NCBI GenBank assembly: GCA_900617105.1 | Contig: UYFQ01000006.1 | Location: forward strand, 62,001-126,000 | Length of the DNA stretch: 64,000 bases | Origin: Hydrurus foetidus | Lineage: Eukaryota | Reading direction: 5' to 3' | Part shown: in pieces, positions 3,969 through 58,194 of the stretch | How the letters are laid out: the number at the start of each line of letters is the position of its first letter | How positions within the stretch are numbered: the first letter of the stretch is position 1 | Program-made: the position numbers and the translations under genes | The notes under the pieces: generated by a model | The model's input: only the letters and a program-made list of their open reading frames with translations | Databases searched by the model: none | What the model was told of the DNA's origin: nothing

Positions 3969-5807
3969 ATGACTGAAATAAGCCGTTTCAGCACACCCAC
4001 TATGCGGTGGATGCTCTTGTTTTTGATGATGGCTGCCTGCTACCTGACGGGCTTGGACAGCCTGTACCTGCCCAGCAACGGCGATGAGATGGTCTACAGC
4101 CGCATCGCCCGCCTGACAGCCCAATCCGGCCACTGGCTGCCGCTGGTGTCCGACCTTGACCACATGCGCAACACCAAACCGCCGCTGCTGTTTTGGCAGG
4201 CGATGCTGGCGGGCGACTGGGGCCAACACTGGAATTTAGCCCGGCTGCGCCTGCCTGCCGTGCTGTACTCGCTGCTGATCGCGGCTTGTGTGGGCTGGAC
4301 GACGTGGCTGGCGGCGCGTCAAAAGGACTTGGCGATCATCGCGGCCTGTGTCTACCTCGCCTTTTTCAGCAGCTTTCGCTACGGACGGCCCTACCTGACC
4401 AGCGCAGCTGAGACGTTTTGGCTGGGCCTGCCGATGTTTGGCCTGCTCTGGCGCGGCCTTGCATTTGCAGCACCCTCTGCGCTCGCCTCGCCGAATTTCT
4501 CCCTGTCCCCATCTTCCACCCTCTCCCACTGGGAGAGGGCAGGGGTGAGGGCATCCCCCGCCCCCGAATCATCCCTCCCAAGCTGGCCCCTTCTCACCCT
4601 CTGGGGACTCGCCTGGGGCTTGGGTCTCGCCTACAAATCCTTCGCCCTCATCGCCCCCGCTGGTGCCAGCCTGTGGTGCGCCATGCTGCTTATGCACCGC
4701 AATGGCAGCTGGTCACGGGTTGCCAACATCACCGTGCGTGCTGCGTGGTGCGGCATGGTGGGCTTAAGCGTGTTTGGCCTGTGGTTTGTGCTGGATCCAC
4801 AACCCCAAGCCGTATGGAACGAGTTCGTGGTGGGTGAAAACGCCGGCAAGCTGGCCACCAGCACTCAGCCCTTCAGCGTGACGGCCAAGGATGTGCTGGT
4901 GCAGGCACTGGCGACGGTGGAGAACGGGGGATTATTGGCGGGACTGGTGTTGGGTCTGATGGTGCTGGGGTTGAAGGCCGTTATCGCCCGTAAAAACACC
5001 CCCGCCCCCCAATCCTGGCTGGTGCCCGCCCTGGTCGTGTGGCTGCTGGTTTGGGGCATCGTGTTTTGCCTCCCTAGCCAACGCTCCGCCCGCTACGTGA
5101 TTCCAGCCATGCCTGCGTTGGCGGTGCTGGTGGCGCTCTATTGGCACCGGCTGGCACGGTGCTGGTTCATCGTCACCTTCGTGATGAGTCTGCCCGTGCT
5201 GCTGGTGCTGGGCCGTATTGCGCAAAGCCTGTGGACTCAAGAGATTGCGACGGACTGGGAAGCCTTTGCGGCGCTGCTGGCGCTGGCTGTGGGGGGGATC
5301 GCCGTGCTGGGTGGAATGCTCATCCGCAGCTGGACACGCGCCAGCGCCTTGGTGACGGTGGTGGCGGTTTACGCCTTGCTCAACGCCACCCTGGCCCCGC
5401 TTTCCGGCCCGGCAGGAAGGTTTGTGCTGCCTGCAAATGCATTGGCTCACAGCGCGCTGGTCGCCGTGCCCAGCACCTTCAACGCCCAGTACGAGCGCTA
5501 CCAGTTCCTGCTGCCGAACGCTGCCAACCTGCGCATCAGCCCCTACAGCCCAAAAGCAGAATCAGATCAACTCCCTGAGCTGCTGCAAACCTACGATGCG
5601 GTGGTGTGGCAGCAAACCGGTGGTCAAAGCGTGCCCGCCTGTGCGCAGCCGCCATCCACGCCCCTTCAGCCCGCCACCTGCCGCATCATCGCTACCCGCT
5701 GGGACATCAAAACCCGCCATCAGCCGGGGGAGATTCATGTGGGGAACATGCTTTACCCCGAGCAATGGTTGCTGCGGCGGGAATGGGTGCTGGTGCGGTC
5801 AAACTGA
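3969..5807 (+). CDS. ArnT/PMT-like GT-C membrane glycosyltransferase
   Basis: DEMVY...KPPLLFW, multiple TMs, RYVIPAMPALA. Confidence 0.8.
   Translation: MTEISRFSTPTMRWMLLFLMMAACYLTGLDSLYLPSNGDEMVYSRIARLTAQSGHWLPLVSDLDHMRNTKPPLLFWQAMLAGDWGQHWNLARLRLPAVLYSLLIAACVGWTTWLAARQKDLAIIAACVYLAFFSSFRYGRPYLTSAAETFWLGLPMFGLLWRGLAFAAPSALASPNFSLSPSSTLSHWERAGVRASPAPESSLPSWPLLTLWGLAWGLGLAYKSFALIAPAGASLWCAMLLMHRNGSWSRVANITVRAAWCGMVGLSVFGLWFVLDPQPQAVWNEFVVGENAGKLATSTQPFSVTAKDVLVQALATVENGGLLAGLVLGLMVLGLKAVIARKNTPAPQSWLVPALVVWLLVWGIVFCLPSQRSARYVIPAMPALAVLVALYWHRLARCWFIVTFVMSLPVLLVLGRIAQSLWTQEIATDWEAFAALLALAVGGIAVLGGMLIRSWTRASALVTVVAVYALLNATLAPLSGPAGRFVLPANALAHSALVAVPSTFNAQYERYQFLLPNAANLRISPYSPKAESDQLPELLQTYDAVVWQQTGGQSVPACAQPPSTPLQPATCRIIATRWDIKTRHQPGEIHVGNMLYPEQWLLRREWVLVRSN
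3976..4030 (-). repeat. 55-bp coding-embedded motif, degenerate copy
   Basis: minus: atcat caaaaacaa gagc atcca ccgc atagtgggtgt gctg aaac ggct tattt. Confidence 0.5.
4519..4551 (+). repeat. CCCTCTCCC-N3-GGGAGAGGG REP-like palindrome inside ArnT-like CDS
   Basis: ccctctccc act gggagaggg caggggtgaggg; translated as TLSHWERAGVR in a low-complexity loop. Confidence 0.75.
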
Positions 5808-5819
5808 CCTTAGCTTGCC

Positions 5820-6497
5820 TTAAATTGCCCGTAATCGCGCTGCTGTCAGCGCTGCCACATCGCGCACCCAAGGCTGCTGCGCCCAATGCGCCTTCGCAAA
5901 AGCGTTGATCTGGTCTTGGTAGGTAAGCGACAGGCCAATCACATCCAGCCCTTCCAAAAACATCTGCCGGTGACGCGCTGACAGCGCGAACGGGGCATCG
6001 ACGCTGGCGCTCTGCACCCGCATCGCTTCAACGTCAATGCACACGGTGCCTTGCTGGTCAGCGTCCGCCATCAGCCGGGCCATTTGGTCTTCGGGCAGCA
6101 TCACCAGCATCAAGCGGTTGTTCATCGCGTTGGAATAGAAAATTTCGCCAAAGCTGGGGGCGATCACTGCCTGGATGCCGTACTGCTGCAAGCCCCACAC
6201 GGCGTGTTCGCGGCTGGAGCCGCAGCCGAAGTTCGCACCTGCCAGCAGGATTCGGGTGGCGGCGTAGGCAGGGCGGTTCAGCACGAAATCAGGGCGGGCA
6301 AGGCCAGCCGCGTCAAAGCGCAGGTCGTAGAGCAGGCCACGGTCAAGACCGGCTTTGTCGATGCCGTGCAGGAACTGCTTGGGCATGATTTGGTCGGTGT
6401 CCAGGTTGTCGATGCGGACGCTCGCAGCACGGCCTTCCAGCACGCCAGATGGGCGTGGGCTGCTATTGTTTTTAATGCTTTTAATGTGCTCAAGCAT
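5820..6497 (-). CDS. leuD: Isopropylmalate isomerase small subunit family (LeuD paralogue)
   Basis: NLDTDQIMPK, NFGCGSSREHAVW; start taken at ATG 6497 overlapping leuC stop. Confidence 0.9.
   Translation of the reverse strand: MLEHIKSIKNNSSPRPSGVLEGRAASVRIDNLDTDQIMPKQFLHGIDKAGLDRGLLYDLRFDAAGLARPDFVLNRPAYAATRILLAGANFGCGSSREHAVWGLQQYGIQAVIAPSFGEIFYSNAMNNRLMLVMLPEDQMARLMADADQQGTVCIDVEAMRVQSASVDAPFALSARHRQMFLEGLDVIGLSLTYQDQINAFAKAHWAQQPWVRDVAALTAARLRAI
6425..6479 (-). repeat. 55-bp coding-embedded motif copy (LeuD N-terminus)
   Basis: minus: agcat taaaaacaa tagc agccc acgc ccatctggcgt gctg gaag gccg tgctg. Confidence 0.55.
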
Positions 6498-14744: not shown

Positions 14745-15994
14745 GGTTTCACCGCCGGAGCTTGAGGGATCAAAGCCAGCCGCTGCCACGCGATGCGCTG
14801 GCGCTGATCGGTGTAGCTGACCCACAGGCTGTCATCCGCCCAGGTCAACGCAGGGTAGGAGAACTCGCTGTTGCCACCGCCTTGGGCCAGTGTGGCGACG
14901 GTGCGCCAGTCCTGGCCATTGGCCGAGGCGCTCAAGTCCAGCGTTTGCCGCCCGGTGGTGGACGGGTTGTAGGCCAGCACCATCAGGCCAGGGCGCAGGC
15001 CCAGGCCCGCCACGGAAGCGTCGGGGTTGTCCAGCGTCAAGTTGGGCAGGTCGTGCCAATCCAGACCAGCGTTGGTGGTTTGCGCCACGGCCACTTTGCG
15101 CTCTGGGCTGTGGTCGCGCAAAAAAGCCAGCCAGTGGGTCTCGTCTTGCATCACCAAGGCGGGTTGCAGAAGGCTGCCCCGACGTGACAAGCGTTGCAAC
15201 CCCAGGAACTCGCCCGCAGCCCCAAAACGCGCCGCCACCGGGTATTTGATGCCTAACTCGAAGTACAGCGGCAGCAGCATCCCGCCTTCGGCCAGCGTAA
15301 GCGGGGCATTGCGCACGAGGTGGCTGGTGTTCCACAACCACGACAAAGGAAGCACGCGAACGGATTCAAAAATCATAGCACTCACCGCCCTTGCATCAAG
15401 CGCAAGAGGCTCTTTTTGCTGTAAATGCAGCACCCGCCCCGCCGCCCAGCCACCCAATCCCGTCGCCACCACGAACAGGTGGACACGGCCCTGCGCGTCC
15501 AGCCACGCGACTGGGTTGCCCAGGCGGCGCACGCCGAAACCCAGTTCGCGGCCAACAGCGTCTTTGTTCACCACAAACCGCGCGGGCATCCACTGCGCGG
15601 AGGCGCGGTCGAACCACGAAAACGCGATCTGTACATCGGGTGCGCTCTCGCGCTGACCGGCAAACCAGAACGCCAAGACCGATGCCGCCGACGTGGCCGG
15701 CATCGCCAACAGCGTGCTCGCGTGGGCAGCGGGGGTGTTGGCGGGCATGGGGATGTGGCCGCTGGCAGTGGTGGTGAAGACCGCTTCACCGACAGCCAAA
15801 GCAGGGGATGCCAGCGCCGGGGTGGGCCACACGGCGGGTATTGCGACTGAAGCCATTGCTTCAACAGCAGTATTTTCGTGCCGTAGACGCAGATTCACAT
15901 CCCACGCCAGCAGGGCCACAGCCAACACAGCCGCTCCCACAGCTTGGTGGCGAACCTTAGCGAGAACCTTGGGGAGAAACATTACGAAGTACAC
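14741..15994 (-). CDS. BNR/Asp-box sialidase-like protein
   Basis: AAHASTLL, AFWFAGQRE, Asp-box-like TTNAGLDW and SANGQDW, EFSYP; start uncertain. Confidence 0.75.
   Translation of the reverse strand: MYFVMFLPKVLAKVRHQAVGAAVLAVALLAWDVNLRLRHENTAVEAMASVAIPAVWPTPALASPALAVGEAVFTTTASGHIPMPANTPAAHASTLLAMPATSAASVLAFWFAGQRESAPDVQIAFSWFDRASAQWMPARFVVNKDAVGRELGFGVRRLGNPVAWLDAQGRVHLFVVATGLGGWAAGRVLHLQQKEPLALDARAVSAMIFESVRVLPLSWLWNTSHLVRNAPLTLAEGGMLLPLYFELGIKYPVAARFGAAGEFLGLQRLSRRGSLLQPALVMQDETHWLAFLRDHSPERKVAVAQTTNAGLDWHDLPNLTLDNPDASVAGLGLRPGLMVLAYNPSTTGRQTLDLSASANGQDWRTVATLAQGGGNSEFSYPALTWADDSLWVSYTDQRQRIAWQRLALIPQAPAVKP
15362..15416 (+). repeat. 55-bp coding-embedded motif copy (antisense in BNR gene)
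   Basis: ggatt caaaaatca tagc actca ccgc ccttgcatcaa gcgc aaga ggct ctttt. Confidence 0.75.
15842..15896 (+). repeat. 55-bp motif, weak copy (antisense in BNR gene)
   Basis: tgcga ctgaagcca ttgc ttcaa cagc agtattttcgt gccg taga cgca gattc. Confidence 0.35.
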
Positions 15995-17069: not shown

Positions 17070-18637
17070 ACAGCGCATCAACCTCACGCTGGCTGTGGGC
17101 GCTGCTGGGGGCCGTCATCGCCCTGCGCCTCGCCACCCTCGGCCTCTACCCGCTGACCGACACCACCGAGGCACGCTACGCCGAAATGGCGCGCAAGATG
17201 ATGGAGACGGGCAACTGGCTCACCCCGATGTTCGACGTGGACGTGCCATTCTGGGGCAAACCACCGCTGTCGTTTTGGCTGAGCGCCGTGCCCATGTGGC
17301 TGGGAGGCATCAGCGAATTCACAGCCCGGCTGGGGCCGCTGGTAACGGGATTGGCGACGATGGCCTTGCTGTGGTGCTGGCCTGCAGCAACCCAAGCCGT
17401 ACCAAGCACCTCTTCACACACACCCTCGAAGACTCCTGAATTCATAGCTAGTACAGCATATCCAGTATGCGCAGCCATCGTTTTCATGTCTGCCCCACTG
17501 GGTTTTATCGCCAGCGGTGCCGTGATGACAGACATGGCGATGGCCATGGGCACCACGCTGAGCATGGTGGCGTTTTGGCGGGTGTGGGCAGCAGACGAAA
17601 GTACCGGCCTGCCTCGCAACCCTCAGCGCAGCGTTTGGCCTTGGCTGTTCTTTGTGGGCCAGTCCATCGGTCTGATGGCCAAAGGGCCAGTGGCGGTGGT
17701 GCTGACCGGGGTTGCGCTGACGCTGTTCCTGCTGGTCTGCGTGTGGCGCGATGGTTTCATCCCTACCGCCGTCAAGCTCTGGCGCACCTTGCCCTGGCTG
17801 CGCGGCCTGCTGTTGACGGCGCTGCTCGTCGCCCCCTGGTACATCCTGGCCGAACAAGCCACGCCGGGGTTCTTACGCTACTTCATCGTAGGCGAACATT
17901 GGTTCCGCTTCACCCAAAGCGGCTGGAAAGGCGACCTCTACGGCGTGGCCCACGCCCAGCCCAAAGGCCGCATCTGGCTGCTGGCGCTGGCGTTCACCCT
18001 GCCCTGGACGCTGGTCGCCGTGGGGTGGATGGCAGCACGCCGAACCAAGCCTCCAAGCAGCGCCGCCCATGACAAGGCGCAAAGCCATGCCCCCCTCAGC
18101 ACCAACCTCAGCGCCCACCTCGGCACCAACAGCGAACGCAGCTACCTGCTGTGCTGGATGCTGGCCCCTGGCCTCTTCTTCACGATGTCGGGCAACATCT
18201 TGTTCACCTACGTGCTGCCCGGCCTGCCCGCGTTTGCGCTCTTGGTCGCAGGCTTGTGGCAAGCCCATGCGTACCGGCGTGGCACGCGGACAGTAGCGAC
18301 GCTCGCAGCCCTGCTCACGCCCGTGGCCTTTGCCGGTGTGGTGCTGTTCAACCCCGGCCTTGCCGCGCCGTTTTCGGAGTTGGCGACGTTGCAAAAGTTG
18401 ACGGGGCAGATCACCTACCTGTACGAGCGGCCTGCGTCTGCGGTGTTTTATGGGCGGGATAGAACGGGGGTGGTCAAAGAGGCTGCGACCATTCAAGCCA
18501 CGTTGACGGCACGCAAGGGCTTGATCGCCTTGCCCGTGCGCCAAGTGGCTGAGGTGCAAACGGTCTTGGTGGCGCACGGGTGGGCTGAGGTGATGCGCAG
18601 CAAAGAGTTTGTGGTGTTTGCTACCACTCAGCACTGA
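17066..18637 (+). CDS. ArnT-family glycosyltransferase
   Basis: DTTEARYAEMAR, FWGKPPLSFW, KGPVAVVL, YVLPGLPAFALL. Confidence 0.88.
   Translation: MNSASTSRWLWALLGAVIALRLATLGLYPLTDTTEARYAEMARKMMETGNWLTPMFDVDVPFWGKPPLSFWLSAVPMWLGGISEFTARLGPLVTGLATMALLWCWPAATQAVPSTSSHTPSKTPEFIASTAYPVCAAIVFMSAPLGFIASGAVMTDMAMAMGTTLSMVAFWRVWAADESTGLPRNPQRSVWPWLFFVGQSIGLMAKGPVAVVLTGVALTLFLLVCVWRDGFIPTAVKLWRTLPWLRGLLLTALLVAPWYILAEQATPGFLRYFIVGEHWFRFTQSGWKGDLYGVAHAQPKGRIWLLALAFTLPWTLVAVGWMAARRTKPPSSAAHDKAQSHAPLSTNLSAHLGTNSERSYLLCWMLAPGLFFTMSGNILFTYVLPGLPAFALLVAGLWQAHAYRRGTRTVATLAALLTPVAFAGVVLFNPGLAAPFSELATLQKLTGQITYLYERPASAVFYGRDRTGVVKEAATIQATLTARKGLIALPVRQVAEVQTVLVAHGWAEVMRSKEFVVFATTQH
17431..17485 (+). repeat. 55-bp coding-embedded motif copy (sense in ArnT)
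   Basis: gactc ctgaattca tagc tagta cagc atatccagtat gcgc agcc atcg ttttc; reads TPEFIASTAYPVCAAIVF. Confidence 0.7.
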
Positions 18638-19084: not shown

Positions 19085-22000
19085 GCCGCCATTTTCACCG
19101 CCTGCGGGTTGCCTTGTGGGTTACGGTAAGCCGCCATCGCCGCATCCCAGTTCGCACGGGCTGTCGTCAGATGGCGGGCTTTGACGTGTCCATAACCTTT
19201 GATTTGCTCAGGGATGCGGGCCACGTCGATGGCAGCAGCATGGTTCACCTCACTCAGCGCTTGCAGCACTTCGCGGATGCTCATTTGGTATTCGCCAATC
19301 AGTGCCCGCTCGGTTTGGCGTTCAACGCTTCGGCCAAAGATGTCGAATGCACCGCCGCGCAAGCCTTTGAGTTTGGCCAGCAGCTTGAAGCCGGTCAGCA
19401 TCGCCGGGCCGAACTGTTGCTTTTGCAGCTCGCCTTTGGCATTGGTTTTGGCAAGCAAGGGAGGTGCTAAGTGGTAGTTCAGCTTGTAGTCGCCCTCGAA
19501 CATGCTGGCGATTTTGGCGTGGAAGCTGGCATCGGTGTGCAGGCGAGCGACCTCGTACTCGTCTTTGTAGGCCATGAGTTTGAACAGGCCTTTCGCCACG
19601 GCTTCGGTCAGGCGCAGGGACTTGTTGGCGGCCCCGGCAAGCAAAGCCGTCTCCTTGGCACGCACCGTGTTCACGAACGCGGTGTAGCTGTCGGCATAGG
19701 CTTGGTTTTGGTAGGCCACCAAAAATTCAGCACGGGTGGCGATCACGCCCTCCAAGCCTTCACGCTTGGTGATCTGGATGACTTGCGCGGGGGTGAGCAG
19801 CTTTTCCACCCCAGCCCAGTCGAGCGCAGCGCGGCGGCCCCAGGCGAAGGCGGTTTTGTTTTGCGCCACAGCAACGCCGTTCAGCTCCATCGCCCGCATC
19901 AGCGCTTCCAGGCCCAGCGGCAACCAGCCTTTTTGCCATGCGTAGCCCAGCACGATGGGGTTGACGAAAATCGTGTCGCCCATCAGTTTGGCGGCCACGG
20001 CATCGGCATTGAACTGGCCTATGCCCGCCACACCGACGGTGTCCACAATGGTTTGTGCGCAGGCGGCTGCGGGGTTTTGCCACGCGCCGTCATGCACGAA
20101 CGCAGCGGTGGGCGTGCCGTGCGAATTCAGCGCGACATGGGTGCGGCCCTCAACCATGCGCAGCAGCGTCTCTTTGCCCGCCGCGACGATGGGGTCGCAG
20201 CCGATGATGAGATCAGCGCTGGCCATGGCGACGCGGGTGGTGGCGATGTCGGACTGGTTCGCCGCAATCAGCACATGGCTCCAGGTGGCGCCGCCTTTTT
20301 GGGCGAGGCCAGCAGCGTCTTGCGTGACGATACCTTTGCCCTCAATGTGCGCAGCCATACCCAGCAACTGGCCGATGGTGATGATGCCGGTGCCGCCCAC
20401 ACCTGCCACGATCACACCCCAGGGGCGGGTGAGTGCGGGCAGTACAGGCTCGGGCAAAGCTACCCCATCCAATGGGCTGGGGCGTTTGACAGATGGGCTA
20501 GAGGCGCTGTCTTTTTTGCCATCCTTCTTGAACGTGCCGCCCTCGACGGTCACAAAGCTGGGGCAAAAGCCTTTGACGCAGCTGAAGTCTTTGTTGCAGG
20601 TGCTCTGGTTGATCTGGCGCTTGCGGCCCAGCGGGGTTTCCAGTGGCTCCACCGACAGGCAATTCGACGCTTCCCCGCAATCACCACAACCTTCGCACAC
20701 CAGCTCGTTGATGACGACGCGCTTGGCCGGGTCTACCAGCTTGCCCCGCTTGCGGCGGCGGCGTTTTTCGGTGGCGCAGGTTTGGTCGTAAATGATGACG
20801 CTGGTGCCTTTGATCTCACGGAATTCGCGCTGGATATCGTCCAGCAGGTCACGGTGGTGGACGGTCACGCCCTCGACCAGTGCGACCCCTTCGTACTTCT
20901 CGGGTTCATCGGTAACGACTACGATTTTGATAGCACCCTCCGCACGCATGCTCTGCGCGATCTGCACAACGGTGTGCCCTTCGGCGCGTTCACCCACCTG
21001 TTGACCACCCGTCATCGCTACGGCATCGTTGTACAAAATTTTGTAGGTGATGTTGACACCCGCTGCAATGCTTTGGCGTACCGCCAGCAGGCCGCTGTGA
21101 AAGTAGGTGCCGTCGCCCAAATTGGCGAACATGTGCTGGTCGGTGGTGAAGGGCTGCTGGCCCACCCAAGGCACACCCTCGCCGCCCATTTGCGTGAACC
21201 CCATCGTGCTGCGGTCCATCCACAGCGCCATGTAATGGCAACCGATACCGGCCATCGCCCGCGAACCTTCGGGCACACGGGTGCTGGTGTTGTGCGGGCA
21301 GCCGGAGCAAAACCAAGGGGCGCGGTCAGCTTTGATTTCCGTCACCAGCATGGCACGTTCTTTGGCCTCGATGATGGCGAGGCGGCTGTCGATGCGGGCC
21401 AGGGTGTCGGCGTCCAGCCCCGTCAGTTTGCGCACACGGGCGGCGATGGCTTGGGCAATCAACGCAGGGGACAAATCTGCATTGGCGCGCAGCAAGGTGT
21501 GCGCCGTGGGGTTGGGCACCGACCACTCGCCGCCGGTGTTGTCGCCGGGCAGTTCGTCAAACTTGCCCAAAATGTTGGGCCGCACATCGGCGCGCCAGTT
21601 GTACAGCTCTTCCTTGAGTTGGTATTCGATGACCTGGCGCTTCTCTTCGATCACCAGAATCTCTTGCAGGCCCATCGCGAATTCGCGGGTGAGCTGAGCT
21701 TCCAGCGGCCAGACCACGCCGACTTTGTGGACGCGCAGGCCGATCTGGCGGCAAGTCGCATCGTCCAGCCCCAAATCGAGCAAGGCTTGGCGGGTGTCGT
21801 TGTAGGCTTTGCCGCTGGCGATCAGACCCAGGCGGTCATGCGGGCCTTCAATCACGTTGTGGTTCAGCCGGTTGGCACGGATGTAGGCCAGCGCGGCGTA
21901 CCACTTGTAATCAAACAACCGGGCCTCTTGCTCCAGCGCCGTATCGGGCCAACGGATATGCACGCCGCCGAGGGGCATGGCGAAATCGGTGGGGATGAGG

Positions 22001-23698: not shown

Positions 23699-23699
23699 T

Positions 23700-38454: not shown

Positions 38455-38494
38455 AGCAGACTGTGCTTACTGGTCATGCTGGACGGGGCTTTTT
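38440..38494 (+). repeat. 55-bp motif copy spanning atuD stop and atuF start
   Basis: gatta actttttca tagc agact gtgc ttactggtcat gctg gacg gggc ttttt. Confidence 0.65.
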
Positions 38495-39667
38495 GGCAAT
38501 GCCCATGAGTTTGGCCAAAATGCCCAACATCACCTCGTCCGCACCGCCACCGATCGAGCCTAAACGGCCATCGCGGAACATGCGCGAGACTTTGTTTTCC
38601 AGCGTGAAACCCATGCCGCCCCAAAACTGCAAACAGGTGTCAGGCACCACGCGGTTCAAGCGCCCCGCTTTGAGCTTGGCCATGCTGGCCAGCTCCATCA
38701 CATCTTGGCCGCTCACATACAGCTCGCCTGCCCTGTAGGTCAGGGCGCGCAGCGATTCGACTTCGGTTTTCATCTCGGCCAGTTTGAACTGCACCCACTG
38801 CTGGTCGGCCAAGGTGGCACCGAACATCTTGCGCTCTTGCGCCCATTCCACCGTCCACTGGATGCAGTTGGAGAGCGATTGCAGGCAACTGGCCGCCGCC
38901 CACAGGCGCTCTTCCTGGAACTGCTGCATTTGGTAGATGAAGCCTGCGCCTTCCTGGCCGATGCGGTTGCGCTGGGGCACGCGCACCTCGTCAAAATAAA
39001 TCAAGCCGGTGTCGGACGAGTCCATGCCGATTTTGCGGATTTTTTGGGCGACAGAGATACCAGGGAGCAGCTTGCCGCCCTCGCGCATGGGGATCATCAC
39101 CAGCGACTTGTTTTTGTGCTGACTGCTGCCCGCTGCGCTTGAGCCCTCACTCGTGTTGACCAGCATGCACATCCAGTCGGCTTGCAGGCTGTTGGTGATC
39201 CACATTTTTTGCCCGGTGATGACGTAATCGTCGCCGTCTTTGCGGGCGAAGCTTTTGATGCCCGCCACGTCGCTGCCCGCACCGGGCTCGCTCACGCCGA
39301 TGCAGCCCACGGCATCGCCGCTGATGGCGGGGGCGAGGAATTCGCGCTTCAGTTCTTCGCTGCCAAAGCGGGCCAGCGCAGGGGTACACATGTCGGTTTG
39401 CACCCCAATCGCCATCGGTACACCGCCGCAGTGGATTTCACCCAGCGTTTCGGCCATCGCCATGCTGTAGGAATAGTCCAGGCCCGCACCACCGTAAGCC
39501 TCGGGTTTGGTCAGCCCCAGCAACCCCAAATCGCCCAAGCCTTTGAACACCTCGTGCGCCGGGAAGATTTCAGCGGCCTCCCATTCGTCCACATGCGGGT
39601 TGATCTGCTCGTCGATGTAGCGCTTCAGGGTTTTCTGGATTTCGCGGTGTTCGTGGGTGAAGTTCAT
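38474..39667 (-). CDS. atuD: Citronellyl-CoA dehydrogenase AtuD-like
   Basis: GVQTDMCTPAL, GVSEPGAGSDVA, QMQQFQEERL, SIGGGADEVML. Confidence 0.85.
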   Translation of the reverse strand: MNFTHEHREIQKTLKRYIDEQINPHVDEWEAAEIFPAHEVFKGLGDLGLLGLTKPEAYGGAGLDYSYSMAMAETLGEIHCGGVPMAIGVQTDMCTPALARFGSEELKREFLAPAISGDAVGCIGVSEPGAGSDVAGIKSFARKDGDDYVITGQKMWITNSLQADWMCMLVNTSEGSSAAGSSQHKNKSLVMIPMREGGKLLPGISVAQKIRKIGMDSSDTGLIYFDEVRVPQRNRIGQEGAGFIYQMQQFQEERLWAAASCLQSLSNCIQWTVEWAQERKMFGATLADQQWVQFKLAEMKTEVESLRALTYRAGELYVSGQDVMELASMAKLKAGRLNRVVPDTCLQFWGGMGFTLENKVSRMFRDGRLGSIGGGADEVMLGILAKLMGIAKKPRPA

Positions 39668-39704: not shown

Positions 39705-41399
39705 CTACATCCGTGCCACGCCAAACTGCATGGGATGCAGTTCGCGCTCGGCGGCCTCTGCGCACAGGCTCAAGCACTGCGCCAGCACAGCGCGGGTATC
39801 ACGCGGGTCGATCACGCCATCGTCGAGCAACAGGCCGCTGGTGTAGAACGCATCGGCTTGCGACTCGAACACGCTGACGATCTTGTCGAACTGGGCTTGC
39901 GATGCGGCTGGATCAGGCGTAATCCCTTTGCGTGCCATCGCCGCCTCGGTGACGATTTGCATGGTGCGGGCTGCTTGCTCGCCGCCCATCACCGCCGTTT
40001 TGGCATTGGGCCAGCTGAACAGGAAACGCGGCGCGTAGCCCCGTCCGCACATGCCGTAGTTGCCCGCACCGAAGCTGGCCCCGCACTGCACGGTGATTTG
40101 CGGCACGGTGGCGCTGGTGACGGCCTGGATCATCTTGCTGCCATGCTTGATCATCCCGCCCTGCTCGCTCTCTTTGCCCACCATGTAGCCGGTGGTGTTT
40201 TGCAGGTAAATGATGGGCTGGCCGAGTTGGCATTGGCGCTGGATGAAGTGGGTGGCTTTGTTGGCACCAGCTACATCAATTGGGCCGTTGTTCGATATGA
40301 AACCGATAGCATATCCCGCAATACTGGCCTGCACGCAAAGGGTTTGGGGGCCGTAGAGGGGTTTGAATTCGAGCAGGTCAGAGTCGTCAGCCAGACGGGC
40401 CATGATTTCGCGCATGTCGATGGGTTCGCGCAGCGTTTCGGGCATGAGGGCAAGCAGGTCTTCGGCGGGGTAGCAGGGTAGGGTGCAGTCCGCAAAAGCG
40501 GGGTCAGAGCCCCAATGCGTGAACGCTCGTGAAGCTTCATTGCTGGCTGCGTGCGCAATGGGGATCTGACCCCGTTTTTGCTGCACCTGTGGCCAATCCA
40601 GCCGTGCCACCACTTCGCGGGCGATGCCCAACGCTTGACGGTCATCCTCAGCGAGGTATTCACCCAGACCCGACAAGCTGGTGTGCATCTCCGCGCCGCC
40701 CAGTTCTTCTTCTGTGGCGACTTCCCCTGTCGCCGCCATCAGCAGCGGCGGGCCAGCGAGGAAGGCGCGGGAGCGGTTGCGCACCATGATGACCACATCA
40801 CTCAGACCCGGCATGTACGCGCCACCGGCGGTGCCAGACCCATGCTGCACGGTGATGACGGGGATGCCCGCCGCAGACAGCCGTGCCAAATTGCGGAACA
40901 GCGCACCGCCGTGCACAAAGCCTTCCACCCGATAACGCATCAGGTTGGCCCCAGCGCTTTCCACCAGATGGACGAAAGGCAGTTTGTTGGCCAAGGCCAG
41001 CTCTTGGACGCGCAAAATTTTGTCCAGCCCCATCGCCTGGATGGAACCGGCTTCAATGCCCGAATCACTGGCGACCACCATGCAGCGCACACCACTGATC
41101 CAGCCGATACCGGCGATCACCCCACCACCGGGCACCGACTGCGCGGGGTCTTTGTGGTCTTGGGCGTAGCCCGCAATCGCGCACAGCGGCAAATACGGCT
41201 GGCCGGGGTCCAGCAGCAGCGCCACCCGCTCGCGGGGCAGCAACTGACCGCGTTTGTCGAACACGGGTTTGGACTTGGCCGAGGCTTGCGCGGCGCGGTC
41301 TTCAAGGGCACGCAGTTGCGCAAGACGGGCCAGCATGGCCTCGCGGCGCTGGGCGGCGAGCGGGCTTTGGGCGTTCCAGGAGGAAGCAAAAACAGTCAT
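39705..41399 (-). CDS. atuC: Geranyl-CoA carboxylase beta subunit AtuC-like
   Basis: VESAGANL, TAGGAYMPGLSD, GASFGAGNYGMCGR, DDGVIDPRDTR. Confidence 0.85.
   Translation of the reverse strand: MTVFASSWNAQSPLAAQRREAMLARLAQLRALEDRAAQASAKSKPVFDKRGQLLPRERVALLLDPGQPYLPLCAIAGYAQDHKDPAQSVPGGGVIAGIGWISGVRCMVVASDSGIEAGSIQAMGLDKILRVQELALANKLPFVHLVESAGANLMRYRVEGFVHGGALFRNLARLSAAGIPVITVQHGSGTAGGAYMPGLSDVVIMVRNRSRAFLAGPPLLMAATGEVATEEELGGAEMHTSLSGLGEYLAEDDRQALGIAREVVARLDWPQVQQKRGQIPIAHAASNEASRAFTHWGSDPAFADCTLPCYPAEDLLALMPETLREPIDMREIMARLADDSDLLEFKPLYGPQTLCVQASIAGYAIGFISNNGPIDVAGANKATHFIQRQCQLGQPIIYLQNTTGYMVGKESEQGGMIKHGSKMIQAVTSATVPQITVQCGASFGAGNYGMCGRGYAPRFLFSWPNAKTAVMGGEQAARTMQIVTEAAMARKGITPDPAASQAQFDKIVSVFESQADAFYTSGLLLDDGVIDPRDTRAVLAQCLSLCAEAAERELHPMQFGVARM
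40293..40347 (+). repeat. 55-bp coding-embedded motif copy (antisense in atuC)
   Basis: cgata tgaaaccga tagc atatc ccgc aatactggcct gcac gcaa aggg tttgg. Confidence 0.55.
40492..40581. repeat. 90-bp GGGGTCAGA/TCTGACCCC palindromic element in frame in atuC
   Basis: 28-bp arms 40492-40519 and 40554-40581 with 3 mismatches; length is a multiple of 3. Confidence 0.8.
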
Positions 41400-42344: not shown

Positions 42345-43099
42345 GCGGTGTCCTTGTTCAAAAAAAGCGCGATAGCGGCGGTGGTCAAGTCGTCCAGCGA
42401 TGCCCCGCCTTGGGTGACTTTGCGCGGGTCGTACCACTGCGCCGTCCAGTTCAACGCACCAAAAATCATCAGTCGAGCCAGTTTGACCTCGCAGCCCAAA
42501 CGCCCTGCGGCATGGAGGGCCAGCAGCACCGGCGTCCACACGGCTTCGTACTCGTCTTTGATGAGGGTGATTTGCTTGCGCTGGCGCGGGTTGAGGCTGC
42601 GCCACTCGTACAGCATCACGGGGATGAAGTCCGCATCGGGGCCCAGCAAAATGTCAAGATGGTTGCGCACCAGTACCGTAAAAAGTGCTTCTTGTGTAGT
42701 TTGGACAGGTGTTGGCAGCTGCGAATTCAATAGCAGTGGAGCTGCCGAATTCAGCGCGTCAAGGGCCGTACTCTGGCGTGCGATGGCAGCCCGCATGCCC
42801 TCTTCCATCACCGCAAACAGCAGATCACCTTTGCTTTTGAAGTGGTAGAACGGCGAGCCACTGTGCATGCCCACCGCTGCGGCAATGTCGCGCGTGGTGG
42901 TGGCATCAAAACCCTGGGTACGGAACAGCTTGGCCGCAGCGCTCAGCAGCGCTTGGCGGCGGTTGCCATCATCACGCTCGTCAGACGTTTTAGGCGGGCG
43001 GCCACGGGGGCGTTTAGGCGGCGCAACAGCCGGGTCAGCGCCTTCAAGGGGGCGCTGTGCGATGTATGACGCTGAGTAAGGCGTGCTGAAGGTGTCCAT
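42341..43099 (-). CDS. atuR: TetR-family regulator AtuR-like
   Basis: TTTRDIAAAVGMHSGSPFYHFKSK, LYEWRSL, GALNWTAQWY. Confidence 0.85.
   Translation of the reverse strand: MDTFSTPYSASYIAQRPLEGADPAVAPPKRPRGRPPKTSDERDDGNRRQALLSAAAKLFRTQGFDATTTRDIAAAVGMHSGSPFYHFKSKGDLLFAVMEEGMRAAIARQSTALDALNSAAPLLLNSQLPTPVQTTQEALFTVLVRNHLDILLGPDADFIPVMLYEWRSLNPRQRKQITLIKDEYEAVWTPVLLALHAAGRLGCEVKLARLMIFGALNWTAQWYDPRKVTQGGASLDDLTTAAIALFLNKDTA
42681..42735 (-). repeat. 55-bp coding-embedded motif copy (sense in atuR)
   Basis: minus: tgcta ttgaattcg cagc tgcca acac ctgtccaaact acac aaga agca ctttt. Confidence 0.65.
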
Positions 43100-43131
43100 G
43101 ACGGTGGACGATAACAAAGGTTTTTATTTTT

Positions 43132-47856: not shown

Positions 47857-48963
47857 TCACACCATCAACACAGGCTCTTGCATAGCCTCAATCTGCTGCT
47901 CCAGCATCTGCACTTGACCACGCCAGTAGTCGCTGCTGCCAAACCAGGGGAAATTGACCGGAAAAATCGGGTCTTCCCAGCGGCGGGCCAGCCATGCACT
48001 GTAGTGGATGAGGCGCAGGGTGCGCAAGGGCTCGATCAGTGCCAGCTCGTGGCGGTTGAAGTCACGGATTTGCTCGTAGCCGTCCAGCAGGGCTGACAGC
48101 TGCTGCGTGCATTCCCGGCGGTCGCCGCTCAGCAGCATCCACAGGTCTTGCACAGCAGGGCCGGTGCGGGCATCGTCCAGATCGACGAAATGCGGGCCAC
48201 CACCAGGCAACTCAGCGGGTGTCCACAGGATGTTGCCGGGGTGGCAGTCACCGTGGAGGCGGATGTTTTGAATTTTTGAATCAAATTGTGCTTTACCGCT
48301 TACACCTAGAGCGCTGGCAGCTATCAACTCAAGAGCGTTTTTGTACGCCACTTGCCACGCACTTTGCACATCCAGGGGAATCATCTCGTGCGTCAGCAGC
48401 CAATCGGCGGATTCAATGGCGAAGGTGGCGATGTCCAGCGCGGGGCGGTGGACGAAGGGCTGGGCCGCGCCCACGGTGTGGATACGGGCGAGGAAGCGGC
48501 CAATCCACTCCAGCACCTCAAAATCGTCCAACTCAGGGCGGCGGCCACCACGCCGAGGGCTGACCGAGAACGAAAACCCCCCAAACTGGTGCAACGTTTC
48601 GCCTTGCAAGCGGAGTGGGCCAATGACGGGAATGTCCGCCGCCATCAGCTCAGCGGCGAAGCCGTGTTCTTCAAGAATTTGCGCTGGCGTCCAGCGGTTG
48701 GGGCGGTAGAACTTGAGGACGACGGCATCGAGGGCATTGGCCAGTGCGCCCTGCGTGCCATCCGCGCCACCCTCTTCCAGGTGCGCGAGGTAAACCCGGT
48801 TTTCGTAGGAGCTGAGCGCCATCAGCCGCCCATCAGCGTGCAAACCGACGCTGGCAAGGGCATCGACCACCACGTCGGGCGACAAGACCTCGTAGGGGTG
48901 GCGGGCGTTGGGGGAACTTGGGAAATGGGGGGCGGCGCTGGAGGATGAGGAAACAGAGGTCAT
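47857..48963 (-). CDS. srkA: Stress response kinase SrkA/RdoA (YihE)
   Basis: SYENRVY, KFYRP, RLHGDCHPGNILW, VDLDD, QDLWMLL. Confidence 0.93.
   Translation of the reverse strand: MTSVSSSSSAAPHFPSSPNARHPYEVLSPDVVVDALASVGLHADGRLMALSSYENRVYLAHLEEGGADGTQGALANALDAVVLKFYRPNRWTPAQILEEHGFAAELMAADIPVIGPLRLQGETLHQFGGFSFSVSPRRGGRRPELDDFEVLEWIGRFLARIHTVGAAQPFVHRPALDIATFAIESADWLLTHEMIPLDVQSAWQVAYKNALELIAASALGVSGKAQFDSKIQNIRLHGDCHPGNILWTPAELPGGGPHFVDLDDARTGPAVQDLWMLLSGDRRECTQQLSALLDGYEQIRDFNRHELALIEPLRTLRLIHYSAWLARRWEDPIFPVNFPWFGSSDYWRGQVQMLEQQIEAMQEPVLMV
48283..48337 (-). repeat. 55-bp coding-embedded motif copy (sense in srkA)
   Basis: minus: cgctc ttgagttga tagc tgcca gcgc tctaggtgtaa gcgg taaa gcac aattt. 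Confidence 0.8.
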
Positions 48964-54290: not shown

Positions 54291-55725
54291 CGAGATTCCT
54301 GTTCTGCAAGGCGGCTTTGCGCCGATTGAGCAAGAGCTGACGATGGACTTGACCGACATCGAAGGCGAGGTGCCGAAAGACCTCAACGGCATGTACGTGC
54401 GCAACGGGCCGAACCGCAAGTTCGAGGCACCGGGCCGCTACCACTGGTTTGATGGCGACGGCATGCTGCACGCGGTACGCTTTGAGGGCGGGCGCGTGCA
54501 GTACCAGAACCGTTGGGTAATGACGGACAGCTTGCGTGAGGAGGTGGTGGCCGGTGCCGCGCTGTGGCAAGGCATCAAAGACCCGCCGCGCAAGGATCGG
54601 CCCGACATGCCCATCAAAAACACCTCCAATACCGACGTGAAGTTCTACGCTGGCAACCTGGTGTCGATGTGGTATCTGGGCGGCTCGGTCTACCAGGTTC
54701 GCCCTGGCGATCTGTCCACCGTAGGCAAGCTGGCGTTTGATCCGCGCATGAAAGACCTGCCGGTTTCAGCCCACTCCAAGGTGGACGAGCGTACCGGTGA
54801 ATTCCTGTTCTTCGCCTACGGCAAAGAAGCGCCCTACATGCACTATGGCGTGATGGACCGCTTGGGTGCGCTCAAGACCTTTATGCCGGTTCAGCTGCCC
54901 GGCCCACGCCTCCCGCACGACATGGCGATCACGCCGAACTACACCATCGTGCATGACCTGCCGCTGTTCTACGACATGGATGCGTTTGCCGCAGGACGCC
55001 ACAAGCTGAAGTTCCATCACACGCTGCCTTCGCGCTTTGGCGTGATCCCGCGCCACGGCACGCCGGAGCAGATCCGCTGGTTCGAGGCCAAACCGACCTA
55101 CATGTACCACGTGTCGAATGCGTGGGAAGAGGACGACGGCCAAGGTGGCACCGAGATCGTGATGACCGGCACGCCCTTTCGCCTGCCGCGCGATGTCCGG
55201 GGTGTACTGGACGTGGAGCGTTTCCCCAAGATGCTGGCCAACCTAGAACATGACTTCATGTTCTACGAATGGCGCTTCAACCTGCGCACCGGCCAGACCA
55301 AAGAGCGCGTGATTGACGACATCGTGAACCAGGAATTTCCCGTCATCAATTCATGGATGCAGGGCTACAAGACCCGCTACTCGTGGAACGTGCTGATGGG
55401 TCGACTGAACCAGGCCGAAGACCCGCGCTTTTGCGGCTTCGCCCGTTACGACCTTGAACGCGATACCTGTACCACCTACCACGCCGGGGTTCACAAATGG
55501 TTCAGCGAAGCGCCATTCGCGCCCAAGGACAACTGGAAAGAAGAGGACGATGGCTACCTGGTCGGCTTCATGTGGGACGACCAGAAAAAGGCCTCGTTCG
55601 TCACGGTGTTTGATGCCAAGGACATCGCCAAGGGGCCGGTCGCCAAGATACGCATGCCGCAGCGCGTACCCAATGGCTTCCACGCCACCTGGGTAAGTGC
55701 CGAACGCCTCTCCAGAGGTTACTGA
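54280..55725 (+). CDS. Carotenoid/stilbene cleavage oxygenase family (RPE65 superfamily)
   Basis: RNGPN, HWFDGDGMLH; four Fe-ligand His in SAH, PHD, YH, GFH; EFP, SEAPF, EDDGYL. Confidence 0.92.
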   Translation: MGINEIPVLQGGFAPIEQELTMDLTDIEGEVPKDLNGMYVRNGPNRKFEAPGRYHWFDGDGMLHAVRFEGGRVQYQNRWVMTDSLREEVVAGAALWQGIKDPPRKDRPDMPIKNTSNTDVKFYAGNLVSMWYLGGSVYQVRPGDLSTVGKLAFDPRMKDLPVSAHSKVDERTGEFLFFAYGKEAPYMHYGVMDRLGALKTFMPVQLPGPRLPHDMAITPNYTIVHDLPLFYDMDAFAAGRHKLKFHHTLPSRFGVIPRHGTPEQIRWFEAKPTYMYHVSNAWEEDDGQGGTEIVMTGTPFRLPRDVRGVLDVERFPKMLANLEHDFMFYEWRFNLRTGQTKERVIDDIVNQEFPVINSWMQGYKTRYSWNVLMGRLNQAEDPRFCGFARYDLERDTCTTYHAGVHKWFSEAPFAPKDNWKEEDDGYLVGFMWDDQKKASFVTVFDAKDIAKGPVAKIRMPQRVPNGFHATWVSAERLSRGY

Positions 55726-55741
55726 TTGTGCAGGAGCAGCT

Positions 55742-57478
55742 ATGATTTTGATACCTCAAAGCACCATCGACGCCTACACCCGCAAAGGCTGGTGGGGCAC
55801 CACCACGCTGTGGGATCTGTTCTTGCACAACCTGCACGAACAGCCCGAGGCCGAGGCCGTCGTTGACGCGACCAACCGAACTGATTTCGCACCCGGTGCA
55901 CCGCAACGCTGGACTTGGTGCCAGTTGGGGGTACAAGCGGATCGCTGGGCCGCCTCGCTGCTGCGTCATGGCATCCAGCGCGACCAGGTGGTGGTCGTGC
56001 AACTGCCCAATTGCGTAGAGCAGTTCGCTGTCTACTTGGCGTGCGCACGGCTGGGCATTGTCATCACCCCTGTGCCCATACAGTACCGCGAGCACGAGCT
56101 GGCCCATATCCTGCACAGCACACAAGCGGTGGCGGCCATCACCTTCTCACGCATTGGCAAGGCTGACACCGGCCACGCCGTCGCCCAGATGTACCGAGAG
56201 CTGCAGCATGGCTACCCGCAGCTGAAAGCTGTGCTGGCACTCGACACGCTGGACGCCCCGTTGCCTGACGCGCAAGCCCTGACTACCGTGCAGATCGCCG
56301 AGCGCGCTGCCGCCGTCACGGCGAACGACGTGTTCAGTATCTGCTGGACCTCAGGCACCGAAGCCAACCCCAAGGGCGTGCCACGCAGCCATAACGAATG
56401 GCTCATCATCGCGCCCTCCATCATTGAGGCGGCTGAACTGGCCCCTCATTCGCGCCTGCTCAACCCCTTCCCCATGGTCAATATGGCGGGGATTTCCACC
56501 GCCTTTGTCACTTGGCTGGTGCTGGGTGCCACCGTGGTGCAACACCAGCCGTTCACGCTGCCGCTGTTCTTGCAGCAGTTGCGCGATGAACGCATCGACT
56601 ACACCGTAGCGCCCCCAGCCGTGCTCAACATGCTGCTGCAAAACGAGGCGCTGCTGGCGGGCATAGATTTTCAGCGCCTGTGGCGCATAGGCTCGGGTTC
56701 AGCCCCGCTGTCCGACTGGATGGTGCGTGGCTTTGCCGACAAGCACGGTGTGCAAATCGTCAACTACTTCGGCTCTAATGAAGGTGCGGCGCTCAGCGGC
56801 AACCGCATCGACATCCCCGACCCCGGCCTGCGCGCCCAATTCTTCCCACGCGCAGGGGTCGAGGGCTTTGAGTGGGCGGTCTCCACAGCCCTCAAGATCA
56901 AGACGCGCCTGGTCAACCTGGACACAGGCGAGGACATCACCACGCCCGGTGTCCCCGGTGAAATCCGCTTCTCTGGCCCCACCATCTTCAGCGGCTACTA
57001 CGGCACGCCTGAGTTGACAGCCCGCTCGTTCGACGCGCAGGGCTACTACAAGACAGGCGACCTGTTCGAGATCGCTGGCGACAAGAACCAGTACTACCGT
57101 TACATGGGACGCTCCAAGGATTTGGTGATACGCGGCGGTGTGAACATTTCCGCCGAAGAAATCGAAAACCTGCTGATGGCCTGCCCTGGTGTGCGCGAAG
57201 CGGCGGTGGTGGGCGTTCCCGACACCACGCTCGGCGAAAAAATCTGCGCCTGCATCGTGCCCACCACGCCAGGTGCGGTCAGCCTAGCGGAGCTGAAAGT
57301 TTTTCTGAAAGAGCAGAAAAAAGTGGCCATCTACAAACTGCCCGAGCACTTGCTGCTGCTGGACGCCCTGCCTCGTAACCCAGTGGGCAAGCTCGTCAAG
57401 CGCGACCTGCGTGAGCAAGCGAAAGCTATGGTGTCAGCAACGGCTGCTGCGGCAACCACCGGCAAGGCCAGCACATGA
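55742..57478 (+). CDS. Acyl-CoA synthetase (AMP-forming)
   Basis: WTSGTEANPKG, FGSNEG, TGD, GRSKD, RNPVGK; start ATG 55742 after AGGAG. Confidence 0.92.
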   Translation: MILIPQSTIDAYTRKGWWGTTTLWDLFLHNLHEQPEAEAVVDATNRTDFAPGAPQRWTWCQLGVQADRWAASLLRHGIQRDQVVVVQLPNCVEQFAVYLACARLGIVITPVPIQYREHELAHILHSTQAVAAITFSRIGKADTGHAVAQMYRELQHGYPQLKAVLALDTLDAPLPDAQALTTVQIAERAAAVTANDVFSICWTSGTEANPKGVPRSHNEWLIIAPSIIEAAELAPHSRLLNPFPMVNMAGISTAFVTWLVLGATVVQHQPFTLPLFLQQLRDERIDYTVAPPAVLNMLLQNEALLAGIDFQRLWRIGSGSAPLSDWMVRGFADKHGVQIVNYFGSNEGAALSGNRIDIPDPGLRAQFFPRAGVEGFEWAVSTALKIKTRLVNLDTGEDITTPGVPGEIRFSGPTIFSGYYGTPELTARSFDAQGYYKTGDLFEIAGDKNQYYRYMGRSKDLVIRGGVNISAEEIENLLMACPGVREAAVVGVPDTTLGEKICACIVPTTPGAVSLAELKVFLKEQKKVAIYKLPEHLLLLDALPRNPVGKLVKRDLREQAKAMVSATAAAATTGKAST

Positions 57479-58194
57479 AGAACCTGCCTGTACTGCTGTT
57501 GATTCCAGGCATGCTCAACACCGTTGCGGTGTGGGCACCTGTCGCCAAACGCCTGAGTGGACACGCCGAGGTGCGCATCGCCAACGTGCAAACCCAGCTC
57601 AGCATCGCCGAGATGGCGCGCGATGCCTGGGCACTGGTGGCGGACGTACCCGTCAGCACACCGCTGGTGGTCTGCGGTTTTTCAATGGGGGGCTATGTCA
57701 CTATCGAAATGATAGCTTCTTGCGCACGACCTGTAAGCGCTATCGGCCTGTTAGACACTTCCGCCAGGCCAGAAGCACCCGAAGGTGCGCTGATCCGCGA
57801 GAAAACCATCGCCGCCATCGAGCGCAACTTCATCCGGGTGGTGGACAACGTGGCACTGCTGGGCACCAGCGCTGAGGCACAGTCCCAGCCCTTGTTGATG
57901 GCCGCTATCCGCCAAACCATGCTAGATACGGGGCCTGACTGCGCCATCCGCCAGAACCGCGCCATCATGGACAGGGGTGACTACCGCGACGCACTCACCC
58001 GCATCACCATCCCCTCGCTGGTGATGTGCGGTCGTGAAGACCGCATCACCCCACCCCACCTGTCTGAAGAGCTGGTCAGCCTGATCCCCGGTGCCCGCCT
58101 CGAATGGATTGACAACGCCGGCCACATGAGCCCGCAAGAACAGCCCGACCAAGTGGCCGAACAGCTGATGAAGCTGCTGCGACACCTGACCTGA
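57475..58194 (+). CDS. Alpha/beta hydrolase
   Basis: GFSMGG nucleophile, GREDRITP, AGHMS. Confidence 0.9.
   Translation: MKNLPVLLLIPGMLNTVAVWAPVAKRLSGHAEVRIANVQTQLSIAEMARDAWALVADVPVSTPLVVCGFSMGGYVTIEMIASCARPVSAIGLLDTSARPEAPEGALIREKTIAAIERNFIRVVDNVALLGTSAEAQSQPLLMAAIRQTMLDTGPDCAIRQNRAIMDRGDYRDALTRITIPSLVMCGREDRITPPHLSEELVSLIPGARLEWIDNAGHMSPQEQPDQVAEQLMKLLRHLT
57699..57753 (+). repeat. 55-bp coding-embedded motif, best-conserved copy
   Basis: cacta tcgaaatga tagc ttctt gcgc acgacctgtaa gcgc tatc ggcc tgtta. Confidence 0.8.

Follow-up and report, generated by a model that had tools for sequence, protein, structure and literature searches.

A recurrent 56-base motif in the window

We analyzed a stretch of 64,000 nucleotides (hereafter the window; contig UYFQ01000006.1 of assembly GCA_900617105.1, positions 62,001 to 126,000, filed under Hydrurus foetidus), in which a DNA motif of 56 bases recurs within and across the ends of genes. 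The gene srkA groups the window with the Comamonadaceae, and its closest relatives are two metagenome-assembled genomes, G001 and G002, at 88-89% identity. The window is part of a larger genome for which there is no whole-genome assembly, and genome-level tests were done on relatives. As shown in Table 1, it holds 14 motif sites, 11 of them fully inside coding sequences (6 sense and 5 antisense) and 3 straddling gene ends. The host genes encode mutually unrelated enzymes together with one kinase and one regulator.

Twelve of these copies had been reported from the sequence alone in the original prediction; their coordinates were right, their alignment is gap-free, and they reach leave-one-out scores of 13-37 bits. 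For testing, a matrix seeded from the family matrix was retrained in three rounds on 111 sites from other contigs of G001 and G002, and the control consisted of 100 shuffles in which the proteins were kept and synonymous codons resampled. This comparison with codon-preserving shuffles, on which the original prediction had staked the motif, gave 13 window sites of at least 15 bits against a mean of 0.74 and a maximum of 3 in the controls. The 15-bit threshold was passed by 11 of the 12 reported copies, the exception being the weak one near the start of the BNR_2 gene. Two copies had been overlooked, and beyond these the full matrix found no further window position above about 11 bits. The motif is real.

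The claim that every copy overlaps a coding sequence holds only as a trait of the window lineage and fails for the family. Coding copies make up 41/78 in the window and G001 combined, 13/17 in G002 and 34/75 in genome G533, compared with 13/63 and 2/25 in five Acidovorax and two Rhodoferax stretches, respectively; all placement counts rest on our own simple gene caller. Similarly, the copies were said to be read in all frames and on both strands. All six registers do occur, but two of them take 58 of the 72 coding copies.

Table 1. Motif copies in the window and related copies in integron cassettes
Feature	Position	Strand	Score (bits)	Context and conservation
Motif copy	3975..4030	-	25.1	Straddles start of unannotated membrane-type open reading frame (3969/4011-5807 +); kept in G001, weakly in G002
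Motif copy	6424..6479	-	24.0	Sense, N-terminus of Aconitase_C (LeuD-like) gene; G002 orthologue has a gap of ~40 bases here
Motif copy	15362..15417	+	38.1	Antisense in BNR_2 gene; in register in G001 and G002
Weak, decayed copy	15842..15897	+	12.4	Antisense near BNR_2 gene start; G001 orthologue 21.6 bits; absent from G002
Motif copy	17431..17486	+	40.7	Sense in PMT-family glycosyltransferase gene; kept in G001
Motif copy, overlooked earlier	20917..20972	+	20.8	Antisense in pyruvate:ferredoxin oxidoreductase-like gene (POR, TPP, DUF6537); equal length in G001 and G002
Motif copy, overprinted	36682..36737	+	30.0	Antisense in biotin carboxylase gene, directly ahead of biotinyl domain; length difference 0 in 107/120 homologues, maximum 1
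Motif copy, overprinted	37018..37073	-	23.2	Sense in biotin carboxylase gene; 0/120 homologues shorter by more than 1 residue
Motif copy	38440..38495	+	23.4	Antisense at acyl-CoA dehydrogenase stop/biotin carboxylase start junction; kept in G001 and G002
Motif copy, overprinted	40293..40348	+	20.0	Antisense in conserved part of carboxyl transferase gene; length difference 0 in 120/120 homologues
Motif copy	42680..42735	-	34.5	Sense in linker of TetR-family gene; stronger in G001; same-length non-matching sequence in G002
Motif copy	48282..48337	-	32.9	Sense in srkA (APH-family kinase); site common to motif-rich genera
Motif copy, overlooked earlier	55701..55756	-	30.2	RPE65-family/AMP-binding enzyme gene junction; held-out match 31.8 bits; kept in G002
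Near-consensus copy, overprinted	57699..57754	+	41.6	Sense in alpha/beta hydrolase gene, right after nucleophile elbow; length difference 0 in 107/120 homologues, rest longer
DUF1010 cassette copies	L386:156-446, 1334-1651; L394:840-1130			Opposite annotated open reading frame
Decayed relative without attC	L388:1480-1545			In motif-free genome G503

In the window, a TetR-led cluster at 35295-43117 (-), with a short-chain dehydrogenase/reductase, a carboxyl transferase, two acyl-CoA dehydrogenases and a biotin carboxylase, has homologues named geranyl-CoA carboxylase (atu-like) and contains five motif copies within 6 kb. A LeuC/LeuD-like aconitase-family pair (6355-8097 (-) and 5820-6497 (-)), which has more paralogues in G001 and G002, adjoins an alpha/beta hydrolase gene and a LysR gene.

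Rigid anatomy and lineage dialects

A consensus was drawn from 142 matches in 80 srkA loci. Its left part is a dyad, GCTAT-N7-ATAGC, with an A/T run at the centre, and includes the T-N11-A geometry of LysR-type regulators. Then, 7 bases past the dyad, come two GC blocks spaced 11 bases from each other, GGC and a second A/T run; the distance between the two A/T runs is about 43 bases, or about four helical turns. Spacing is rigid, the left dyad showing an offset of 0 relative to the rest in 107/109, 75/76 and 108/108 cases, whereas the flanks are less so (a gap in 37 of the 142 forty-base flanks of orthologous sites). The centre of the dyad varies with lineage: it is palindromic TT..AA in Acidovorax, AG..CT in Rhodoferax and eroded in the window lineage, and in Ca. 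Aalborgiella the motif is not symmetric about the same axis. Genome G258 has 227 exact left dyads in a dialect with a GC-rich centre that escapes the family pattern (L221-L223), and more dialects may be hidden among the genomes scored as motif-free in our family sample.

Within lineages, pairing across the dyads hardly exceeds what the consensus predicts. No excess covariation was found in the Acidovorax, window-lineage and Aalborgiella sets, and in Rhodoferax two of 18 central pairs gave a nominal signal (P 0.005 and 0.025); some reverse-orientation matches in the Acidovorax and Rhodoferax sets produced spurious negative values. Moreover, the 14 window copies fold no better than their shuffles (z-scores -1.9 to +1.7). 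Given this small pairing excess and shuffle-like folding, the motif is probably recognized as double-stranded DNA. The proposal that it is a DNA-level signal of fixed geometry, neither a protein motif nor a simple hairpin, is borne out by these results and by the upkeep of silent positions described below. Occasional double-headed copies, in which both arms take the left-hand form (L230:3791-3827; L234:17452-17488; G499:C1:654583-654621), make a perfect hairpin with a T tail and could probably serve as terminators.

Copies replace host codons and are kept at silent positions

Insertion and overprinting were distinguished, as the original prediction had suggested, by alignment of host proteins. 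Four window sites were each aligned with 120 homologues, motif-rich and motif-free hosts pooled. The length difference was 0 in 107, 107 and 120 of the 120 at three sites, and at the fourth the homologues were within one residue or longer. None of the 480 comparisons showed a homologue shorter by more than one residue, whereas a 56-base insert needs about 19. At these four sites the motif thus replaces codons without adding length. Its spacer codons still encode the residues of the protein family, as in the hydrolase gene, where they do so after the nucleophile elbow, and the antisense site in the carboxyl transferase gene overlies residues common to nearly all homologues. The suggestion that the motif is a domesticated miniature mobile element is unsupported, because no length was added at the four sites, the copies all differ from one another (mean pairwise identity 0.63 in G533) and no transposase tracks them.

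Silent positions within the motif are conserved. At the srkA site isoleucine is encoded by ATA in 33 of 33 motif-rich genomes (the unpublished G447 included), compared with 22 of the 391 other isoleucine codons of the same genes, and ATA occurs in none of 16 motif-free genomes, 11 of which have isoleucine as ATC or ATT and 5 valine; these counts cover 49 of the 50 genomes counted, L043 being left out for a stop in the extracted frame, and are not independent since the genomes are kin. In Variovorax, srkA encodes a motif-like peptide with ordinary codons, as expected if upkeep had stopped. Across 11 genome pairs, some genomes being used twice, 72 of 74 orthologous sites with both flanks aligned were present in both members, and contact positions differed by 9% compared with 29% for spacers. 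The motif is actively kept.

Distribution and placement across genomes

Exact left dyads were counted in 50 of the 80 srkA genomes, with the reversed pattern as control. Counts reached 520 in Rhodoferax/Albidiferax, 177-378 in Acidovorax, 359 in Ca. Aalborgiella and 682 in one Variovorax-labelled genome, and the remaining genomes above control had 56-126. Limnohabitans (0-3), five other Variovorax (14-53), Pseudorhodoferax, Ramlibacter and Acidovorax sp. Root219 did not exceed their controls. The Limnohabitans counts, set against 22-35 for the reversed pattern, are below chance, which possibly reflects mere codon bias against TA. Matrix searches found 65 sites in 393 kb of G001 and 75 in 400 kb of G533, and density is one site per 5-9 kb. 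At least 15 matches were present in 25 of 201 sampled genomes of the family and in 3 of 301 of the order, and in a class sample of 401 genomes only G001 had more than 11. The motif is a family-level trait of the Comamonadaceae. It has been lost genome-wide in several lineages, and motif-free genomes occupy at least four distinct positions on an srkA tree computed with the motif codons removed, a single-gene tree whose deep nodes are weakly supported.

Placement was analyzed in G533, where 24 convergent gaps hold 13 sites, 46 divergent gaps none, and 150 co-directional gaps 27, of which 12 run with and 15 against transcription. The coefficient of variation of spacing is 0.73 there, compared with 0.96 for random intergenic placement (P=0.002), with a largest gap of 17 kb in 400 kb, and site lists from exact matches gave 0.69 and 0.70. 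The check for strand bias revealed no polarity by strict patterns (35/30 in G499 and 142/153 in G003, as strand counts without a mapped origin or terminus). At a large scale G499 is uneven, the strict pattern having no match over 744 kb and on small contigs. Close pairs are nearly absent (1-3 per genome in five genomes); since they are rare and lie next to unrelated genes, the idea that clusters mark a cognate gene was rejected.

In G003, four near-identical motif copies (L215:6870-9420), the sole young-looking copy family seen, are interspersed with a different, GC-rich palindromic repeat; together they form a mosaic that surrounds two small toxin-antitoxin-like genes. Genome G004 has about 35 IS200-like copies (Y1_Tnp, 153 aa), several of which abut the right end of the motif (L093, L098, L099 and L103), suggesting that their insertion shows a target preference for that end.

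Temperate phages and integron cassettes carry the motif

A scan of viral genomes (IMG/VR) found at least 120 loci; among the matches listed, 90 reached at least 25 bits, 76 of them distinct. Copies in temperate phages are near-consensus and lie in or beside core genes (L235-L354, L396-L400), some with a right end shared among phages. Among 90 open reading frames scanned near viral copies, those with a match fell into the terminase, portal, RecE/RecT, antirepressor, primase, methylase and tail families, and no one partner was common to the copies. In the two richest phage records, 4 sites lie within 60 kb and 4 within 32 kb, respectively, at one per 8-15 kb or about half the host density. Furthermore, 36 virus records, chosen for having an exact left dyad, contain 79 of them compared with 14 of the reversed pattern. 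BLAST against cultured phages returned chance matches only.

Cassettes of class 1 integrons that bear the annotation DUF1010 have one motif copy apiece, which scores 47-51 bits, lies opposite the annotated open reading frame and is among their best conserved internal blocks. One such cassette lies between dfrA12 and aadA2 and is presumably the one named gcuF/orfF; 1797 plasmid records match one DUF1010 cassette at 60-80% identity. The first part of the Pfam DUF1010 model (PF06231) also matches plain chromosomal motif copies on the opposite strand. Although Pfam files DUF1010 as a protein family, its conserved part appears to correspond to the DNA motif and the attC end of the cassette, and DUF1010 appears to be an antisense reading of these rather than a real protein family.

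A candidate DNA-uptake signal

The reading that we favor, and hold tentatively, is that a protein with multiple contacts would recognize the motif in duplex DNA, and that the motif most likely serves as an uptake signal of natural transformation spread by molecular drive. Sites that are numerous, rich in information, overprinted on genes, evenly spaced, orientation-free, silently kept, drifting in dialect and lost wholesale call for a protein that reads the sequence and for a force that bears on each site, and biased uptake with recombination is the known process that gives such a set of properties (PMC2397512, PMC3630211). The reader would belong to the type IV pilus/competence apparatus and contact the 56-base site in double-stranded DNA, with the in-phase A/T runs aiding DNA bending. 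Biased uptake and recombination would then create and refresh sites at any place where the encoded protein can bear them, so that drive rather than host benefit would maintain them. This possibility was absent from the original prediction. Consistent with it, natural transformation occurs in A. temperans and A. facilis (PMC4212676), and the genomes so named are motif-rich, with 189 and 282 exact left dyads. Verminephrobacter takes up DNA via type IV pili, salmon DNA competing little (PMC4212676); the available text of that article names no uptake sequence.

Several observations weigh against an uptake signal. A. defluvii and A. delafieldii, both motif-rich here, gave no transformants (PMC4212676), and V. 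eiseniae, the only species of the family in which uptake shows evidence of being selective, has just one unrelated pair in the available part of a 2017 motif table (PMC5217627) and a plasmid without a motif copy. No reader protein tracked the motif among the candidates scanned: ComEC and ComP-family pilins (ComP_DUS) do not distinguish motif-rich from motif-free genomes (each present in 45 of 48 genomes), and ComEA-like helix-hairpin-helix proteins (HHH_3), H-NS and ParB (ParB_N) in 5 of 5 genomes with no separation of the two groups. At srkA, the copy fits the dialect of its own lineage best in only 19 of 30 genomes (Acidovorax 11/13, Aalborgiella 2/2, Rhodoferax 3/10). Extra length was found relative to the motif-free G503, of 6-107 bases in 19 pairings that correspond to about five sites, and srkA exceeds its Limnohabitans and G503 counterparts by 6-10 residues; loops and intergenic gaps therefore also gain or lose bases around sites. 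The known DNA uptake sequences (DUS) of Neisseriaceae and uptake signal sequences (USS) of Pasteurellaceae have a near-invariant core of 9-12 bases rather than 56 degenerate bases in three sub-sites. DUS moreover occur about once per kb and form inverted-pair terminators, which the rarely paired motif does not, and their absence from recently acquired genes fits uneasily with motif copies in prophage genes and cassettes; one plasmid and parts of G499 hold no motif copy.

Putting the phage and cassette copies together with the chromosomal ones, the motif could be a genome-wide kin barcode of the Comamonadaceae, rewriting enzyme codons, present in temperate phages and read by an uptake receptor or a self/non-self sensor, with the DUF1010 cassettes found in class 1 integrons of clinical bacteria as gene-less carriers, and not protein genes, from Comamonadaceae hosts; we consider this wider picture speculative and less likely than not.

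Sites of this kind might instead bind a cytoplasmic nucleoid- or chromosome-organizing protein, an oligomer contacting three sub-sites about two turns apart and retained by selection for regular spacing, which we judge somewhat unlikely. Even spacing, orientation independence, rigid multi-block geometry, in-phase A/T runs, conservation at orthologous sites and avoidance of divergent promoter regions would all suit such a protein, and HIP1 of cyanobacteria has been argued to work in this way on like evidence (PMC5861425). However, strict patterns showed neither macrodomain restriction nor replichore polarity, H-NS and ParB do not track the motif in five genomes, and the motif was lost wholesale in several lineages; hundreds of amino-acid-changing sites of 37-70 bits would also be hard to build by weak selection on each. 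Improbable, in our view, is a Chi-like mark of self for a translocating nuclease, recombinase or defense machine, which would take kilobases of site-less DNA as foreign and against which phages and cassettes would gain copies as camouflage. The small largest gap, the near-consensus copies that lie within or next to genes for terminase, portal, RecE/RecT, primase and antirepressor, the excess of exact dyads in the preselected virus records, the single copy per DUF1010 cassette and the patchy loss usual for defense systems are compatible with it. Chi-like marks are, however, short and strand-polar, while the motif is long and non-polar; no candidate system has been put forward, and the site-less 744-kb stretch and small contigs of G499 (by the strict pattern) and the Verminephrobacter plasmid fit it badly. 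A nucleoid site or self mark of such length and number would be a kind of site without a known counterpart.

A mobile element of the kind of repetitive extragenic palindromic (REP) sequences or miniature inverted-repeat transposable elements (MITEs), inserted or copied by templated rewriting and then decayed, is largely refuted and, all told, quite improbable. Rickettsia palindromic elements are a precedent for intragenic mobile elements, and in the dialects of Acidovorax and Rhodoferax an (A/G)TAG tag precedes a sequence able to form a long, imperfect hairpin; in these genera the motif is mostly intergenic and convergent (see also PMC5217627, section 13). The length gain at some sites relative to motif-free relatives and the near-identical copies of the G003 mosaic also point this way. 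The four tested sites, in contrast, gained no length and kept host residues in their spacer codons, and silent positions are held over genus-level distances. Among motif-bearing Acidovorax there were no presence/absence differences (110 present, all 19 absences being relative to G503). Within lineages pairing covariation shows no excess, the Aalborgiella dialect lacks a central dyad, and doublets or arrays are lacking. A REP-associated tyrosine transposase (RAYT), or Y1 transposase, as mobilizer was rejected: RAYT-sized Y1 genes are not flanked by the motif, are missing from the motif-rich G003 and are present in the motif-free G005. Hardly credible is an RNA-level element, a terminator or stability hairpin. 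Enrichment between convergent genes (in G533 and in PMC5217627) would agree with it, but copies in co-directional gaps run about as often against transcription as with it, 5 of the 11 coding copies of the window are antisense, the window copies fold like shuffles and they match no Rfam family.

Were the motif an uptake signal, the Comamonadaceae would be a third family with sequence-specific uptake, established so far in two only (PMC4212676, PMC3630211). The candidate signal is long and information-rich and occurs in culturable, transformable environmental bacteria. With natural pairs of gain and loss (Acidovorax sp. Root219 and its sister genomes; a single motif-rich genome alongside motif-free Variovorax), phylogenetic profiling can be used to find the reader. 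Such pairs also make drive testable, and drive versus benefit is a debated question in the spread of uptake signals (PMC2397512). Our analysis also offers an explanation for a very common family of integron cassettes and flags DUF1010 as likely spurious.

Comparison with known repeats and signals

An Rfam scan of the window gave three weak matches to small nucleolar RNAs elsewhere and none on the motif. The original prediction knew no named family for the motif, and none was found in the open-access literature, but pieces of it had already been listed. Tong, Schliekelman and Mrazek (2017; PMC5217627) describe GCTTAT(N)5AAGCG in Acidovorax ebreus and ATAGCT(N)22CAAAAG in Polaromonas naphthalenivorans as potential novel motifs, and their supplement has 106 and 140 pairs for Polaromonas and Rhodoferax, with no function given. 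The offsets of these pairs, and of the other Polaromonas and Rhodoferax pairs in the part available, fall on the coordinates of the element, and the pairs are pieces of it. The article treats them as separate single-genome motifs; its section 13 notes a likeness without joining them into one element, and the available text is silent on overprinting, maintenance, dialects, phages and cassettes. The element as a whole, its overprinting and its occurrence in phages and cassettes were not found described in the open-access literature, subscription journals being mostly outside this search. The element has thus been glimpsed before, unexplained, and is a genome-wide signal of the uptake-signal/HIP1 kind. 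Two repeats of the same bacterial family were set aside: the Burkholderiales-1 RNA motif (PMC2864571) is an unrelated GC-rich sequence, and BRE (PMC3110155), set apart by its description, has 75-91 bases, 69% GC and 1-29 copies per genome.

HIP1 resembles the motif in several respects. It is genome-wide, conserved both inside open reading frames and in the stretches separating them, and regularly spaced, without a peptide or RNA role, and its function is debated between chromosome structure and gene transfer (PMC5861425). It is, however, an 8-base palindrome, GCGATCGC, whereas our motif is seven times longer, degenerate and split into dialects, and is not a HIP1. REP/REPIN-RAYT systems of the GTAG family (PMC3733652) share (A/G)TAG followed by an imperfect palindrome, seen in two dialects, and a preference for convergent intergenic gaps. 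The motif differs from them in its heavy coding use and in lacking doublets, a flanked RAYT, pairing covariation and near-identical families; six Burkholderiales names had no match in the available text of that article. MITEs and Rickettsia-type intragenic palindromic elements are full-length insertions with near-identical young copies, whereas the motif shows only partial length gains at some sites. The chromosome sites matS, KOPS and Chi are domain-restricted or strand-polar, and strict patterns revealed no restriction of the motif to one chromosome domain and no replichore polarity.

The closest resemblance is to DUS/USS (PMC2397512, PMC3630211, PMC2346458). Like them, the motif has hundreds of copies on both strands, in and between genes, without replichore polarity; it is conserved at orthologous permissive sites, silent codon positions included; and it forms lineage dialects, if incompletely tracked at srkA, in competent hosts with type IV pili. 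By this analogy, we file the motif as a candidate that would work like DUS/USS rather than as a member of either.

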